A stretch of 27,702 nucleotides of DNA, from positions 1-27,702 of the forward strand of contig JAJPHT010000048.1 of the NCBI GenBank assembly GCA_021325135.1, written 5' to 3'. Origin of the DNA: Pseudomonadota bacterium (lineage in GTDB: Archaea > Thermoplasmatota > SW-10-69-26 > JACQPN01 > JAJPHT01). The stretch's first letter is position 1. Each line of letters opens with the position of its first letter. Under the pieces are notes generated by a model. It saw nothing but the letters and a program-made list of their open reading frames with translations. It had not been told where the DNA came from and did not search any database. The translations under genes were made by a program, and so were the position numbers. Below, piece by piece: positions 22,024 to 27,702 of this stretch.

Positions 22024-22485
22024 TCACGCGAGGTGGGGCGCTTCGGCGCCGTCGCACGTGGCCGTGACGACCTGCGACTCGTAGTCCATGAGCCAGTGGA
22101 CGCTCTGCGTGGGGACCGTGCACGTCGCGGTGACGATCACGGGGCCGCCGTCCCACGCGGCCCAGTCGCCGATGACGAAGCGCGCGCTGAACGTGCCGCC
22201 CAGGGGGTAGGGGTGGTCGTAGACGACGGTGATGTCCCACTGGCCTTCGGCGGGGCCGCCGTGCTCCAGGGGCACGACGATGTCGTCGCACTTGCCCAGG
22301 CTCGCGTCGATGCACCCCTCGTCCAGCGAGAAGCCGGCGCGGTGCGTGGTGCCGTCGGGGTACCCGACGAGGAGCAGCTCCGCGCCTCCGGCCGCGACGT
22401 AGTCGGTGGGCGCGACCACCGTGGCGCCGGTGGACGGGAGCGTGAGCAGGGCGAGCGCGGCGACGAGAAGGGTCTGTCGGATCAT
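22024..22485 (-). CDS. secreted hypothetical protein
   Basis: GGAGG RBS, signal MIRQTLLVAALALLTLPSTGA, 4 Cys. Confidence 0.75.
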   Translation of the reverse strand: MIRQTLLVAALALLTLPSTGATVVAPTDYVAAGGAELLLVGYPDGTTHRAGFSLDEGCIDASLGKCDDIVVPLEHGGPAEGQWDITVVYDHPYPLGGTFSARFVIGDWAAWDGGPVIVTATCTVPTQSVHWLMDYESQVVTATCDGAEAPHLA

Positions 22486-22503: not shown

Positions 22504-23409
22504 TCACGAGGGGAAACGGACGGGGACCGCGGCCTCTTCCTTCAGGATCTCCGTCACGTCGAGGGGCCCGAAGGTGACGAGGATGCGGTCGTGGTTCTGC
22601 GGCTGGTAGGCGGGGCCGCCGGGGGCCACCATCCACTCGCCTCCCGGGTGGACGACGAAGACGTGCAGGCCGTCGGTGTCGTTGCCGCGGTAGCCGTGGC
22701 CGCCGTGGGCGGCGGCGTCGAGCCAGATGCCGTCGGGGGCGAGGCGCGTGTCGAGGCCGCGGTCGAAGAACTCCGCCAGCGTGACGCCCGGCGCGCCTTC
22801 CATGTGGATGGTGCCGGGGAAGCCTTCGCCCACGTGCTGGTGCGCGCGCTGGTAGGGGTGGAGCGCGAAGTCGAAGGCGGGAAGCTCGTAGTCGACCTGC
22901 GTCCCGTTGACGAACACCGCGAACGCCGCGTGCTCGTGGACGGGGGGCAGGTCGCGGTTGGCCATGGAGAACGCGACGGCGACGCCCGCGACGACCACGA
23001 GGCCCGCCGCGAGGAGCGCGGCCGCGGCCAAGGCGCGCGCGCGTCGGCGGCGGGCGGCGTCCTGGCCGGGCTCGCGGGAGAGCGAGGCGTCCGCGACGCG
23101 GGCCTCCGCCTGCGCGACGGCCTGCATGGCGAGGGCGGCGGCCTGCTCGGCGCGCGCGACGGCCTCGAAGGCCTGCACGACCTCGGGGGAGATGCCCTTG
23201 GCGCGCCGCGCCATGGCGCTCCAGCCCAGCGCGACCGTGAGCGGGGGGATCGTGACGAGGAGGCCCACGGCGAGGAGCGCGCGCGTGGAGAGGCCCGCGT
23301 CCCAGACGCCCGCCTCGCGGAGCAGCTCCAGCAGGGCGACCAGGAGGATGGGCGCGATGCAGGCCGCGACGAAGAGGGGGTGGGGGCGGGGGACGGGGTC
23401 GTCGCTCAT
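22504..23409 (-). CDS. membrane protein with His-rich C-terminal domain
   Basis: Three hydrophobic helices, then HEHAAFAVFVNG…HQH…IHME…TLAEFF. ATGA overlap with the MFS stop. Confidence 0.78.
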   Translation of the reverse strand: MSDDPVPRPHPLFVAACIAPILLVALLELLREAGVWDAGLSTRALLAVGLLVTIPPLTVALGWSAMARRAKGISPEVVQAFEAVARAEQAAALAMQAVAQAEARVADASLSREPGQDAARRRRARALAAAALLAAGLVVVAGVAVAFSMANRDLPPVHEHAAFAVFVNGTQVDYELPAFDFALHPYQRAHQHVGEGFPGTIHMEGAPGVTLAEFFDRGLDTRLAPDGIWLDAAAHGGHGYRGNDTDGLHVFVVHPGGEWMVAPGGPAYQPQNHDRILVTFGPLDVTEILKEEAAVPVRFPS

Positions 23410-24752
23410 GCGGGCTCACCGGAGGGGGACGTCGCGGGCTGCGCGGCGGGCGCGCGCCGCGGGACGGCGAGGAAGAGGAAGGGGAGGGCGGAGGCGAGGA
23501 CGGCGAGGGCGACGTAGTTGAAGCCCATGGCGAGGTCGCCGCCGCGCTTCACCACCAGCGCCAGCGCGTAGGGCGCCAGGATGCGCGCGGCGGAGGTGGC
23601 GGCCTCGGTCCACGAGAAGGACGCCAGGGGCCCGGCGGGCGAGGCGTTCTGCGCGACCATGGCCATGGCCAGCGGGCGGCCCACGCCGTCCACGACGCCG
23701 AAGACGACCCACGCGGAGATGATGAGCGCCAGGGGCGCGAAGCCCATGACGACGTTGAGCGCCGCGCACGCGAGGAGGCTTGCCACGATGACGGCGCGGG
23801 GGCGCCCCGTGCGCGCGGCGAGGGTGGGCCCGGCGAGCTGGAAGAGCGCGGCGGCGATCCAGCTGGCGGCGATCACGGGGCCAATCCACGCGGGGGGCAG
23901 GCCGCGCTGCTGGAGGTAGATGGGGAAGTAGATGGGGTAGATGGCCAGCGAGAGGCCGAAGAGGAAGAGGTGCGTGGAGAGGAGCGCGACGTTGCGCCCC
24001 GTGCCCAGCGGCAGGCGGCGCACGAGGCCCTGGCGCGCGCGCTGGAGGTCGTGGAGCGAGGCGAGGGCGCCCTTGCGCGCGGCGGCGAGGTCGTCGAACG
24101 CCTGGCGCTCGTCCTGCGTGAGCGCGTCGCGCTGCGCGCGGCTGCGCGGCGTGGCCGCGTGCGCGCGCCAGAGCACCCAGCCCGTGAGGCCCAGCACGCC
24201 CAGCGAGACCAGCGTCGCCAGCGCGAAGACGGGGCCGAAGCCCTTCGACGCCAGCGAGTACGCGACGAGGATGGCCGCCGCGTAGGCGAAGCCGGTGAGC
24301 ATGCCGAGGTACGCGAACACGCGCGCCTGGCCCTCGACGGGCGCGGCCTGCGCGATGAGCGCGCTCACCCCCGGGGCCGACGCCGCGCCCGCGAAGGAGC
24401 CCAGCGCCGCGAGGCCCACGAACTGCAGGGGCGTCTGCGCGAGGAGATAGAGAGGGGTCGTCAGCGCGGGGACGAACGCCAGCGCCATGACGAGCACGGG
24501 GTTGCCGAACGCGCGCGGGAAGCGGCCCGCCACGAGCTGCACCACCAGGGCGCCCACGCCCACGGCGACGAAGATGCCGCCAAGCTGGAGGAGCGAGAAG
24601 CCCTTGGAGATGAGGAAGAGGGGGAGGATGGGGATGAGGAGGCCCGCGTTGAACGCGGAGACGACGTTCACCACCAGGACGTGGCGCACGCCGGGGGACC
24701 TGCGCCAGTCCTCCCTCGCCACCGCGAGGGCCTGCCTCGTCCACGCCAGCAC
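23406..24752 (-). CDS. MFS transporter
   Basis: About 12 TM helices in a 6+6 arrangement with a long central loop, motif-A-like LAARTGRPR. Confidence 0.9.
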   Translation of the reverse strand: MLAWTRQALAVAREDWRRSPGVRHVLVVNVVSAFNAGLLIPILPLFLISKGFSLLQLGGIFVAVGVGALVVQLVAGRFPRAFGNPVLVMALAFVPALTTPLYLLAQTPLQFVGLAALGSFAGAASAPGVSALIAQAAPVEGQARVFAYLGMLTGFAYAAAILVAYSLASKGFGPVFALATLVSLGVLGLTGWVLWRAHAATPRSRAQRDALTQDERQAFDDLAAARKGALASLHDLQRARQGLVRRLPLGTGRNVALLSTHLFLFGLSLAIYPIYFPIYLQQRGLPPAWIGPVIAASWIAAALFQLAGPTLAARTGRPRAVIVASLLACAALNVVMGFAPLALIISAWVVFGVVDGVGRPLAMAMVAQNASPAGPLASFSWTEAATSAARILAPYALALVVKRGGDLAMGFNYVALAVLASALPFLFLAVPRRAPAAQPATSPSGEPA

Positions 24753-24795: not shown

Positions 24796-25086
24796 CTAGC
24801 TGAGAGTCCTTTCTTCGTCGGCGAGAAGCCCGGCCTCCACGAAGCCGCGGAGGACCTCCTCCACGTCGCGCCGGATCTCCGTCTCGGGGACCTCCGGAAA
24901 CGATCGGCATAGAGAGTTGACGATGTCCCTGACGAGCAGCCCCGATTTCGCGGCGTCGAGGACCATGTACGCGGGCTCGTTGAGCTGGTAGATGGCGCCG
25001 TCGTCGAGGTTCGTCGCGTAGCGCGCGCCCTCCTCGCCCGAGAGGACGATGGAGCCCGCCGCGCGGAAGCGCTTCGCGGGGTTCAG
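24796..25086 (-). CDS. PqqD-family RiPP recognition element (RRE)
   Basis: GAIYQLNEPAYMVLD…IVNSLCRSFPEVPETEIRRDVEEVLRGFVEAGLL. Probable CTG start overlapping the methyltransferase TGA; start uncertain. Confidence 0.85.
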   Translation of the reverse strand: MNPAKRFRAAGSIVLSGEEGARYATNLDDGAIYQLNEPAYMVLDAAKSGLLVRDIVNSLCRSFPEVPETEIRRDVEEVLRGFVEAGLLADEERTLS

Positions 25087-25886
25087 GGGGCTCCCCCCTT
25101 GCGGCCGGTGACCACGAGATGCCCCGCGTGGCCCGAGAGCGAGAGGTCGGCGCTCAGGCGCGACTCCAGCGCGAGAAGCTCGCCCCACGCGACGGGGTCG
25201 CGGCCCATGTGCTCCAGCGCCGCGGGCGGGAGGAAGTGCGCGAAGAGGACCTTGCCTCCCACGCGGACGTCCTGCGCGCCGGCCTCGACGAAGAGGTCGC
25301 GCAATTCGTCGGGCGCGAAGGCGTGGACGCCCATGCCGTAGGGGTCGAGCCCCTTGCCGTGAGCGGCGGCCGCGAAGCCCTCCGCGACGCGCCCCTGGGC
25401 GAGGAAGCCCAGCGTCGCGATCCAGCGGTTGTCCACGCTGACGTAGAACGCGCCGCCGGGGCGCAGCACGCGCAGGATCTCCCGCGCCGCCGCCGCGCGC
25501 TGGGGGCCCGCGTAGGAGAGGGCGTCCCCCTCGCAGAACACGAGGTCGAAGGAGCCCTCGCGCAGCGAGAGGCGCTCGACGACCCCTTGCAGGAAGCGCG
25601 CCTTCCCCGAGAGGCCGCGCTGCGCGACCTTCGCCCGCGCGACGTCCAGCATGCCCGGCGAGGGGTCCAGCAGCGTGACGCGATCGCCGCGCCCCAGGAA
25701 GGCCAGCGCGTAGGTGCCCGAGCCCGCGCCCGCGTCGAGGACCGCGCCCCCGGGGGGCGGAAGGAGAGGGGCCACGCCCTGGAGCGTGACGTGCTCGTGG
25801 ACGCGCCAGACGGGGCCGCTGTTCTGGGCGTCGTACGCCGCCGCGACCTTGTCATACGTCTGGATCGTCTGGCCTCCGTCGCTCAC
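25083..25886 (-). CDS. class I SAM-dependent methyltransferase
   Basis: VLDAGAGSG, LDPSPGML, SFDLV, RVLRPGG. Start GTG 25886 or ATG 25925. Confidence 0.92.
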   Translation of the reverse strand: MSDGGQTIQTYDKVAAAYDAQNSGPVWRVHEHVTLQGVAPLLPPPGGAVLDAGAGSGTYALAFLGRGDRVTLLDPSPGMLDVARAKVAQRGLSGKARFLQGVVERLSLREGSFDLVFCEGDALSYAGPQRAAAAREILRVLRPGGAFYVSVDNRWIATLGFLAQGRVAEGFAAAAHGKGLDPYGMGVHAFAPDELRDLFVEAGAQDVRVGGKVLFAHFLPPAALEHMGRDPVAWGELLALESRLSADLSLSGHAGHLVVTGRKGGAP

Positions 25887-25963
25887 GCGTCCGCATGGCG
25901 CGCTCCCGTCATGGGGTTTTCTCATGACCCAACATTCTTCATGCTCCCGCGAGATGCGCGTGC

Positions 25964-26770
25964 GTGGCCCCTCTCCCGCGTCTCGGCGTCGGCCTCGGCT
26001 ACCGCGCGCCGCTTCGCGCCGACATCCTGCGCCACGTCAAGGACCTCGACTTCCTGGAGGTCATCGCGGACGCCTTCTTCCGGGAGGAGCCCATGCTGCG
26101 CGCGCTCCGAAGCATGACGCCCTGCGTGCCCCACGCGCTGGCGCTCTCCGTGGGCTCCGAGGTGCGCCTGGATTACCTGGAGCGCGTCGCCCGCGTCGTC
26201 GAGGTGACCGACCCTCCGTGGTTCACGGACCACCTGGCGTTCACGCAGGAGGGGGACGTGCCCATCGGCCACCTCGCCCCGGTCCCCCACACCGAGGAGA
26301 GCCTGCGCGTCGTGGTGGACAACGTCCGCAAGGTGATGCGCCGCATCCAGCGCCCCTTCGGCTTGGAGAACATCACGATGCCCTTCTACTGGCCCGGCAG
26401 CACCCTGGACGAGGCCACCTTCCTCCAGGAGGTGGTGAAGCAGACGGGGTGCCTGCTCCTCCTGGACCTGGAGAACGTGCGCGTGAACGCGGAGAACCAC
26501 GGCCGCGTCGCGCGCGACTTCCTGGACCGCCTCCCCCTGGAGCGCGTCGTGCAGGTGCACCTGGCGGGCGGCGTCCACGCGGAGGGTCTCCACCACGACA
26601 CGCACAGCGCGCCGGTGAGCCAGGAGACGTGGGACCTGCTGGAGTACCTCTGCGACGTGGCACCCCCCGCCGGCGTCCTCATCGAGCGCGACGCGGGCTT
26701 CCCCCCCTTCGCGGACCTGCTGGGAGAGGTGCGCCACGCGCGGAGCATCCTGGAGGGCGCCGCCGCGTGA
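25964..26770 (+). CDS. DUF692-family multinuclear non-heme iron oxidase (MNIO; MbnB/TglH/ChrH family)
   Basis: GVGLGYR, DFLEV, PHALALSVG, WFTDHLAF, GLENI, LLLDLEN, VHLAGG, DTHSAPV, LIERD. The metal-ligand motifs appear intact. Confidence 0.95.
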   Translation: MAPLPRLGVGLGYRAPLRADILRHVKDLDFLEVIADAFFREEPMLRALRSMTPCVPHALALSVGSEVRLDYLERVARVVEVTDPPWFTDHLAFTQEGDVPIGHLAPVPHTEESLRVVVDNVRKVMRRIQRPFGLENITMPFYWPGSTLDEATFLQEVVKQTGCLLLLDLENVRVNAENHGRVARDFLDRLPLERVVQVHLAGGVHAEGLHHDTHSAPVSQETWDLLEYLCDVAPPAGVLIERDAGFPPFADLLGEVRHARSILEGAAA

Positions 26771-27549
26771 GCCTGCCCGCGATGCGCCTCGCCGTCGCGC
26801 GCCTCCTCACCGATCCCGCGTACCAGGCGCGCTTCTTCGCGGCGCGGGAGGAGGCCGCCGCGGAGTTCGGCCTCACCCGGGAGGAGTTCGCGGCGCTGCG
26901 CACGCTGGACCGCCGCAAGCTCGCCATCACCACCGAAGGCTTCGCGGGCAAGCGCCTGGAGCCCCTCAACGAGTCGTTCCCCCTCACCCTGGCGGCCATG
27001 GGGGCGCACGATCCCGACGCCGCGCGCCGCTACCTCGCCTCCACGCCGCACCCTGCCAATCTGGAGATGGAGGCGGCGTCCCTGGGCTCGTACCTCGCGC
27101 ACGCCGAGGTGGGGCCGCCCCACGTGCGCCGTTACCTCCTGGACCTGCGCGACGCGGAGTGGGCCCTCGCCCGCGCGCCGCGCCCCCGGGGCCTGGCGAG
27201 CTATCGATTCGTCCCCGACGCGCTGCGCCCGCGCCGCACGCCCTTCGTTCCCGTGGTGGACCTGCGCGGCGCGCTGGGCTCGCCCGCCCTCGCCTCGGGT
27301 CCGATGATCCTTCCTCGCGAGTACCCCGAGGCGCCGCAGCGCGCGCTGGTGGTGCGCCTCCCCGGGGGAATCGCCACCGAGCTCCTCACCCCGGAGCGCG
27401 AGGCGCTCCTCGCGGCGTGCGACGGCGTCCGCACGCTGCGCGACCTCGCAGCGCAGTTCGGCCCCTCCGCGGAAGCGGCCGTCGCGGCGTGGCTGCGCAC
27501 GCGCGCGGTCGACGACGCTTCAGCCATCATCGGCAGCATATCGTCTTGA
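26767..27549 (+). CDS. MNIO partner protein (DUF2063-like role) with a C-terminal RRE-like winged helix
   Basis: GTGA overlap with the DUF692 stop, LLTDPAYQARF, FPLT, DLRDAEWA, C-terminal LLAACDGVRTLRDLA. Confidence 0.8.
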   Translation: MSLPAMRLAVARLLTDPAYQARFFAAREEAAAEFGLTREEFAALRTLDRRKLAITTEGFAGKRLEPLNESFPLTLAAMGAHDPDAARRYLASTPHPANLEMEAASLGSYLAHAEVGPPHVRRYLLDLRDAEWALARAPRPRGLASYRFVPDALRPRRTPFVPVVDLRGALGSPALASGPMILPREYPEAPQRALVVRLPGGIATELLTPEREALLAACDGVRTLRDLAAQFGPSAEAAVAAWLRTRAVDDASAIIGSISS

Positions 27550-27604
27550 GCCGCGCCCGGGCTCTGGGGGTCGCCGGGCCCTCGCGGCCTGGCGACGTGA
27601 GACC

Positions 27605-27702
27605 ATGACGTACTCCAAGCCCCTCTTCGCCCCCGTGACCAACGACCGCGAGTCCGCCGGCTGCTGCTTCTACTACAACAACGCCGGCCAGGGCTTCTAC
27701 TA
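27605..27702 (+). CDS. putative RiPP precursor peptide (partial, runs off the window)
   Basis: ATG 27605 gives MTYSKPLFAPVTNDRESAGCCFYYNNAGQGFY.., with G/C in every third codon position. YxxP leader motif, Cys-Cys/aromatic core, directly downstream of the MNIO pair. Absent from the supplied ORF track. Confidence 0.75.
   Translation, partial: MTYSKPLFAPVTNDRESAGCCFYYNNAGQGFY

Follow-up and report, generated by a model that had tools for sequence, protein, structure and literature searches.

The closest described systems to the locus reported here are TglA/TglHI, the bufferins and 'adjamnio' families, and the lasso and LPP peptides. In the TglA/TglHI system (pearlin, 3-thiaglutamate) an MNIO and a two-domain partner act on a Cys-containing substrate that has an N-terminal leader and no signal peptide. 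The locus has the same elements, and the predicted fold of its partner protein matches TglI (8hi7_A). However, the precursor is about 140 aa long compared to about 50 for TglA, and its conserved Cys is residue 20 and is not at the C-terminus. No PEARL/LanB-like gene is present among the cluster genes scanned here. The clusters add a methyltransferase, a PqqD protein, an MFS transporter and a protein with three transmembrane (TM) segments, and the host is an archaeon.

MNIO substrates as large as proteins had already been proposed (PMC12452194). Antoine et al. described 'adjamnio' families in which the substrates can be proteins of 120-290 aa with conserved Cys motifs (Antoine et al. 2025, PMC12452194). 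The precursor groups in their survey are spread across the eubacterial tree (PMC12452194). No mention of archaeal hosts was found in the supplementary material searched, and a literature search found no archaeal MNIO product described. Like these systems, the locus has a 'PME-type 2' partner with no Pfam signature, and BufB is the best NCBIfam model for its MNIO. The differences are that the precursor lacks a Sec signal peptide and matches neither DUF2282 nor any other Pfam or NCBIfam family, and that the gene order is MNIO-partner-precursor. When the locus was compared to bufferins (BufA; DUF2282 or BUF_6/12Cys), neither signature was found in the precursor, the MNIO scored 210 bits with the BufB model against a cut-off of 310 bits, and the partner had no DUF2063. 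The locus also differs from that of methanobactin (MbnA). The MbnB model gave 41.6 bits against a cut-off of 325 bits, the precursor has about 140 aa compared to 20-30, and no MbnC was found.

The leader peptides of lasso and LPP precursors carry the motif [Y/W]xxPx[L/V/I/F/A], which has been shown experimentally to bind discrete PqqD-type RREs (PMC13381572). LPP precursors are 35-200 aa long, their N-termini are conserved and their C-termini vary, and the Pro of the motif is at about -13 (PMC13381572). The locus has this N-terminal motif and a discrete PqqD gene in the cluster, and the Pro of the LPP motif, about 13 residues before the core, has its counterpart here. In contrast, the cluster genes revealed neither a lasso cyclase nor a B2 protease or LPP kinase. 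The precursor lacks a Thr at -2 and has no Asp or Glu as an acceptor in positions 7-9 of the core, and the tailoring enzyme is an MNIO. Of the features expected of a lasso precursor, the YxxPxL-type motif is present (YSKPLF), but the cyclase, the B2 peptidase and the acceptor are not. The residues after the Cys are CCFYYNNAG, with no acidic residue. In the MNIO systems themselves, the partner proteins bind the leader through an RRE as an added beta strand (PMC12257519).

The gene cluster and its host

The window analysed is a whole contig of 27,702 nucleotides from a genome of 3.77 Mb in 51 contigs with a GC content of 73.5%. The genome is archaeal. TBP is present and sigma-70 region 2 is absent, the editing domain of ThrRS is of the archaeal type, and one gene resembles an archaeosine TGT. 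The genes of the cluster are listed in Table 1 together with the precursor genes found elsewhere in the genome. Pfam scans of the cluster genes matched only the MNIO, the methyltransferase, the PqqD protein and the MFS transporter, and no protease was recognised in the cluster.

Table 1. Genes of the cluster in the window, and paralogues of the precursor gene in the genome
Feature	Position in window	Strand	Length	Remarks
153-aa protein	22024..22485	-	153 aa	N-terminal hydrophobic signal-like segment, several Cys
301-aa protein	22504..23409	-	301 aa	three TM-like segments (hydropathy) and C-terminal soluble domain; no Pfam match
MFS transporter	23406..24752	-		PF07690
Stand-alone PqqD-type RRE	24796..25188	-		PF05402, 38 bits against a cut-off of 23.4
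SAM-dependent methyltransferase	25083..25925	-		Methyltransf_25/11 matches; divergent from MNIO
MNIO (DUF692) oxidase	25964..26770	+		PF05114, 260 bits, full length
MNIO partner	26782..27549	+	255 aa	N-terminal helical domain and C-terminal RRE-like beta3-alpha3 domain (predicted)
Precursor gene, 5' end	27605..27702	+		first 98 bases, 32 codons
Paralogue C20			142 aa	P0002
Paralogue C47			152 aa	P0005
Paralogue C35			140 aa	
Paralogue C44			138 aa	
Paralogue C29			137 aa	
Paralogue C33			about 130 aa	
Paralogue C36			about 70 aa	divergent

The MNIO is a single copy gene in the genome. Its scores are under all the NCBIfam equivalog cut-offs, and its closest relatives in the PDB are 3bww and then TglH (8hci_D). 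The partner has no Pfam match, but its AF2 model has a pLDDT of 85.8, and the best Foldseek matches of the model are TglI (8hi7_A/8hci_A, E 1e-4) and NGO1945 (3dee), both full-length. The predicted combination of a helical domain and an RRE is that of the 'PME-type 2' class of Antoine et al. (PMC12452194). The partner is 48% identical to that of a related locus, L010.

Homologues of the other genes are present among three related loci, L010, L049 and L053. For the methyltransferase, tblastn gave 45-53% identity in all three. The true start of the PqqD gene is uncertain; the domain is located at roughly 24823-25011, and the gene overlaps or follows the methyltransferase gene. A PqqD gene also comes after the methyltransferase gene in L053 (37 bits) and in L010 (tblastn 1e-17). 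The MFS transporter has an identity of 66% to that of L010, 39% to that of L049 and 37% to that of L053, and tblastn found homologues of the 301-aa protein in L010 (69%), L053 and L049. The gene of the 153-aa protein is kept beside that of the 301-aa protein in L010 only. Both proteins lack a family assignment and are candidates for immunity, receptor or processing roles.

The precursor gene at the contig end

The ATG at 27605 opens the translation MTYSKPLFAPVTNDRESAGCCFYYNNAGQGFY, which can be read to base 27700, where the contig stops. The ORF holds the leader motif YSKPLF, the pair Cys20-Cys21 and the aromatic pair CCFYYNN/AGQGFYY. This start codon is supported by the paralogues and the metagenomic homologues, which all open at the same M-x-Y-x-K-P although their upstream DNA is divergent. 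An earlier note on this DNA had given the ATG and the translation exactly, and the Cys-Cys pair that it described is present.

The window (contig C21) finishes with 104 bases that four contig ends have in common without a mismatch; C43 and C20 carry this repeat at their ends and C47 carries it at its start. The assembly therefore broke inside a multi-copy gene. Since the paralogues are longer, the apparent peptide in the window is the N-terminus of a 142- or 152-aa protein. The window copy is one of two identical 5' ends, and its continuation is either the C20 gene or the C47 gene. In the protein database the partner (P0022) and the C20 protein (P0002) are both assigned a longest contig of 378,227 b, whereas the C47 protein (P0005) is assigned one of 285,431 b. 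The window gene therefore most likely runs on as the 142-aa protein P0002 of C20.

The earlier note had read the ORF as a short precursor peptide with possibly several repeated AGxxFYY nonapeptide core units and possible cleavage after SAG. Two AG-xx-FYY units do exist, and the pair recurs in some distant relatives, e.g. GCNFYV...GQGFYV. However, the full-length copies have 129-152 aa and two units; a third unit is absent from every paralogue, and a run of at least three tandem core units was not found. The 27-nt tandem repeat that had been described in the DNA is a two-unit match of only 19-20 of 27 bases. A period-27 match of this quality occurs at 6e-4 per position genome-wide in this genome of 73.5% GC, and TRF returned nothing at a score of at least 30. 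The aromatic stretches around NNAGQG can be read equally well as a hairpin. The paralogues refute the repeated cores for copy number and length, and the probability left to a short peptide of this type is negligible. A long protein is what the earlier note had named as evidence against its peptide, and the paralogues reveal one of about 140 residues, which is far from an ordinary protein.

The precursor family

The precursor family is extremely rare. Among 5.8 billion clustered proteins there are 9 matches, 6 from the same genome and 3 metagenomic, and 13 profile matches were obtained in 1.84 billion representatives, all of them singletons from metagenomes. A scan of genome contigs with the precursor alignment gave no match in 185,579 species genomes, and no member was found in 60 relatives of the genome. 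No model in Pfam or NCBIfam matches the family, and a PDB profile search was empty. The AF2 model (pLDDT 36) is uninformative about the fold and is beta-rich at low confidence. The ESM Atlas model is also poor and its structural neighbours are meaningless.

Only Y3, P6, C20, G80 and P92 are invariant in an alignment of 19 sequences. In 22 of 22 sequences (21 and P0030) the motif YxxPx(F/I/L/M/V) is present, and a Cys comes after its Pro at a spacing of exactly 14 residues. When it was used as a regular expression, YxxPx(hydrophobic)-N11-C, the motif had 10 matches in the whole six-frame translation of the genome and 9 of these are family members. The tenth, at C23:115599 (+), MEEYQLPVFFLIDQDLAIANCPLDSL..., is unrelated to the family in sequence and may be a chance match. 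The YxxP leader proposed in the earlier note has held up well. Its Y and P do not vary, YxxPx[F/I/L/M/V] agrees with the RRE-binding motif [Y/W]xxPx[L/V/I/F/A] from the literature (PMC13381572), and a PqqD protein is present.

Cys20 is the only Cys that is universal in the family. Only the close subfamily keeps the second Cys, Cys77 and the C-terminal Cys, and the distant members have G-C-N-F in place of G-C-C-F, Ala for Cys77 and no C-terminal Cys. Across the family a conserved block, VTPLxxTGxPxTxP, follows a Gly-rich variable linker and precedes a hypervariable tail. The N-terminus, MTYSKPLFAPVTNDRES, is not hydrophobic. A lipobox reading of the [SA][GA]C ahead of Cys20 was ruled out because there is no preceding hydrophobic signal segment. 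In a metagenomic protein of 2870 aa, P0017, positions 22-73 of the family profile are matched in 23 separate stretches (E 8.7e-9). This protein may consist of repeats of a related module, or the match may be due to low complexity.

In most members the Cys is followed by F or another aromatic residue, which agrees with a different role for the enzyme. The MNIO could act on the aromatic residues by the Cys pair (F22/Y23/Y24 and F31-Y34), e.g. by ortho-hydroxylation as in PbsCD, and the Cys residues would then be metal ligands or form disulfides. The MNIO PbsC, together with PbsD as its RRE partner, hydroxylates Phe within an FHAFRF motif, and its cluster also includes an MFS transporter (PMC12257519). 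However, the relatives in L049, L053 and G306 have C-[RS]-P-C with no aromatics after the Cys, and the best-scoring models for the MNIO are those of the Cys-modifying enzymes BufB and HvfB. A modification of the aromatic residues is highly improbable.

Paralogues in the same genome

Six-frame searches found 7 family genes in the genome, with full-length products of 129-152 aa and one of about 70 aa. The paralogues share near-identical N-terminal 34 residues, a variable Gly-rich linker, a conserved block (VGNNGAGVTPLCGTGLPATQPQTFGxPVGVTGV) and a hypervariable tail. Of the 9 close members, seven end in Cys and two in Cys-Thr-Gly. The multi-copy expansion was seen in this genome only, and G142, G345 and G306 have one copy each.

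The genomic positions of the copies are varied. Six of the 7 sit among housekeeping genes and are distant from any MNIO; the neighbours of the dispersed copies include archaeosine TGT-like, GlmS-like, PGM, ThrRS, TatC, UbiE and SDR genes. No conserved protease or transporter was found beside the dispersed copies, and an M50 peptidase is near the C35 copy only. The C35 copy is preceded, at C35:41779-41959 (L002, L024), by roughly the final 90 b of the partner gene at 87% identity, and this shows that copies of the precursor gene were duplicated out of the cluster. The third-position identity over the first 32 codons is 0.78-1.0 with a GC3 near 95%. Gene conversion was considered, but at such a GC3 the third-position identity does not separate it from codon bias.

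A promoter-like element, TTCACA(A/G)-N8-10-(T)CGCATAGG, is located about 55-80 nt before the ATG of the paralogues. The sites are C43:5925-5950, C33:90945-90975, C29:51440-51470, C44:47355-47385, L010:4205-4240 and 27520-27545 of the window. The window and the C35 copy have a degenerate version, TTCAGCC...GCAGCATA, within the 3' end of the partner gene. The element may be an archaeal BRE/TATA common to the copies, or an operator. In the paralogues GTGAGACC immediately precedes the ATG, and most copies have GC-rich hairpins just 5' of it (27550-27604 in the window and the equivalent 5' UTRs), some of them with a YATCAAG loop (C43, C29 and L010). As a conserved 5'-UTR structure the hairpin was rejected, with z-scores of -3.3 to 0 that are mostly unremarkable at such a GC content.

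The tails raise the question of where the core lies. It could be that the MNIO substrate has an NHLP/Nif11-style leader of about 120 residues that ends in S-V-A-G-Q, and that the hypervariable Cys-bearing C-terminal 15-35 residues are the core, with a C-terminal Cys processed as in TglA/TglHI. The tail is hypervariable while the upstream part is conserved, and the C-termini of the close members are as given above. TglI is the best structural match of the partner, and TglH is second-best among the PDB relatives of the MNIO. One enzyme set with many variable cores is also the arrangement of the prochlorosins, in which one modifying enzyme (LanM) serves many dispersed precursors. The likeness extends to the 7 dispersed precursors with near-identical N-termini and hypervariable C-termini. 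In contrast to the prochlorosins, the enzyme here is an MNIO and not LanM, the host is an archaeon, and the expansion was seen in one genome only. The distant relatives and the ORFs of L049, L053 and G306 have no C-terminal Cys, and Cys20 alone is universal. A core confined to the tail is an unlikely explanation.

Conservation of the neighbourhood

PF05114 was found in 14 of 401 genomes of the phylum. The same MNIO subfamily, taken as at least 55% identity to the window MNIO, comprises the loci L010, L049/G142, L048/G303, L050/G306 and L053/G345, and all of them carry the same type of partner. Four loci have an ORF beside the MNIO that belongs to the family or looks like it, and their genes are arranged in three ways. 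The set that they have in common consists of the MNIO, the TglI-like RRE partner, the SAM methyltransferase, the stand-alone PqqD, the MFS transporter and the 3-TM protein.

L010 is a soil metagenome contig (Ga0070741_10030585) with a 138-aa family member that is convergent with the partner and MNIO genes. On the other side are the methyltransferase and PqqD genes, and the contig also holds the MFS gene and genes for 291-aa and 153-aa proteins. L053 has the layout of the window. Its precursor, partner and MNIO genes share a strand, the methyltransferase, PqqD and MFS genes are on the opposite one, and the precursor is a 108-aa ORF that opens with MNHMYQKPMMTQVGLETETASCSPC. In L049 the MNIO and the partner are followed by a 105-aa ORF that opens with MSYIKPLVTLLDNTTELAGCRPC, and these three genes converge on the homologue of the 301-aa protein, the MFS gene and the methyltransferase gene. 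In G306 the MNIO contig ends just past the partner, and a 66%-identical ORF is 300 b from the start of another contig. The precursor of G306 probably adjoins the MNIO across this contig break.

The shorter ORFs of the L049, L053 and G306 type were missed genome-wide by the profile of the precursor family and were found by the motif and a local hmmsearch. When aligned to the main family with hhalign they gave an E of 1.6e-5 and a probability of 79%. Among the loci with the same MNIO subfamily, G303 (L048) is the exception, since the queries used found no such ORF near the enzyme or elsewhere in that genome. A scan of genome contigs with the MNIO alignment found only the locus L011 of a Polyangiaceae MAG, whose MNIO is 36% identical and which has no family ORF. 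In the partner gene of L053 there is an in-frame stop at L053:9199-9201 (G345:C6), with GKRLETV*SAFP compared to GKRLEPLNESFP and a Glu in the partners of the window and of L010. The gene may be a pseudogene or be read through, or the stop may be a sequencing error. The MNIOs of L043-L047, L051, L052 and L054 (genomes G008, G013, G014, G237, G154, G063, G201 and G270) belong to a second archaeal subfamily with an identity of 37-41% to that of the window. It has a partner of different sequence and no YxxP ORF downstream. G008:C150 holds two of the MNIO genes about 1.5 kb apart.

Unless the genes are functionally linked, it is difficult to see why different families of the phylum should carry the same set in three orders. 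From the ORFs found beside homologous DUF692 genes in L010, L049, L053 and probably G306, the claim of the earlier note that the ORF encodes the substrate of the cluster is very probable.

It is also conceivable that the protein is an ordinary structural or surface protein that the MNIO does not modify, and that its position beside the enzyme is a by-product of local duplication. The composition is low in charge, rich in G, T, V, N and P and of low complexity, such as a fibre- or matrix-forming protein might have, and the low-confidence model is beta-rich. Most of the 7 copies are dispersed among housekeeping genes and have variable tails. The recurrence of the adjacency in the phylum, set out above, speaks against this explanation. 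The protein has no signal peptide, and the invariant YxxPx(hydrophobic)-N11-C is the signature of a leader bound by an RRE. That the protein is a structural one and a bystander is quite unlikely.

A proposed role for the precursor

The explanation that is favoured here, and that is reasonably probable, is that the precursor is a substrate of the adjacent archaeal MNIO machinery with about 140 residues, no signal peptide and no confident fold. A scheme of docking, oxidation and methylation is proposed for it because binding of YxxP leaders by PqqD-type RREs and of leaders by MNIO partners has been published (PMC13381572, PMC12257519). The strand around YSKPLF, or YxxPx(hydrophobic) in general, would dock on an RRE, either the C-terminal domain of the partner or the stand-alone PqqD. 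Docking would put Cys20, the candidate modification site, into the iron site of the MNIO for oxidation. The product would most likely be a Cys-derived heterocycle or a thioamide-type group, as for the nearest MNIOs BufB, HvfB and TglH, and a thiooxazole, an oxazolone-thioamide or a TglH-like excision are the options. The stand-alone PqqD, whose gene always accompanies that of the methyltransferase, would probably present the same leader to the methyltransferase, which would then add a methyl group. Removal of the leader ahead of Cys20 and export are speculative steps. One enzyme set would serve the 7 dispersed paralogues, each of which has its own promoter-like element.

Against this scheme, 120 residues would be an unusual 'core' for a RiPP, and an MFS pump would hardly be expected to export it. 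The distance of six of the 7 copies from any MNIO, the exception of G303 and the lack of a recognised protease in the cluster also speak against it. A wider proposal is that the locus is a protein-sized combinatorial RiPP system in an archaeon, with one enzyme set, a YxxP leader, a Cys20 warhead, 7 precursors and diversifying tails. This proposal is tentative and somewhat less likely than not.

Significance

MNIO enzymes are known for unusual peptide chemistry, and the locus is a concrete archaeal system that is open to test. It offers an enzyme pair, a recognition motif known from other RiPP classes, a single invariant candidate Cys and seven natural variants of the substrate. The precursor family, for which a chemistry is proposed here, is a new one for a known enzyme class, in an archaeon. 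The locus adds to the growing view that the substrates of MNIOs include proteins as well as short peptides. The recognition logic of YxxP and RRE would be reused with a third class of tailoring enzyme. If the combinatorial proposal is true, the product could be an archaeocin-like toxin or a metal-binding protein, and Archaea would have their first natural product family made by an MNIO, with precursors of a new class.
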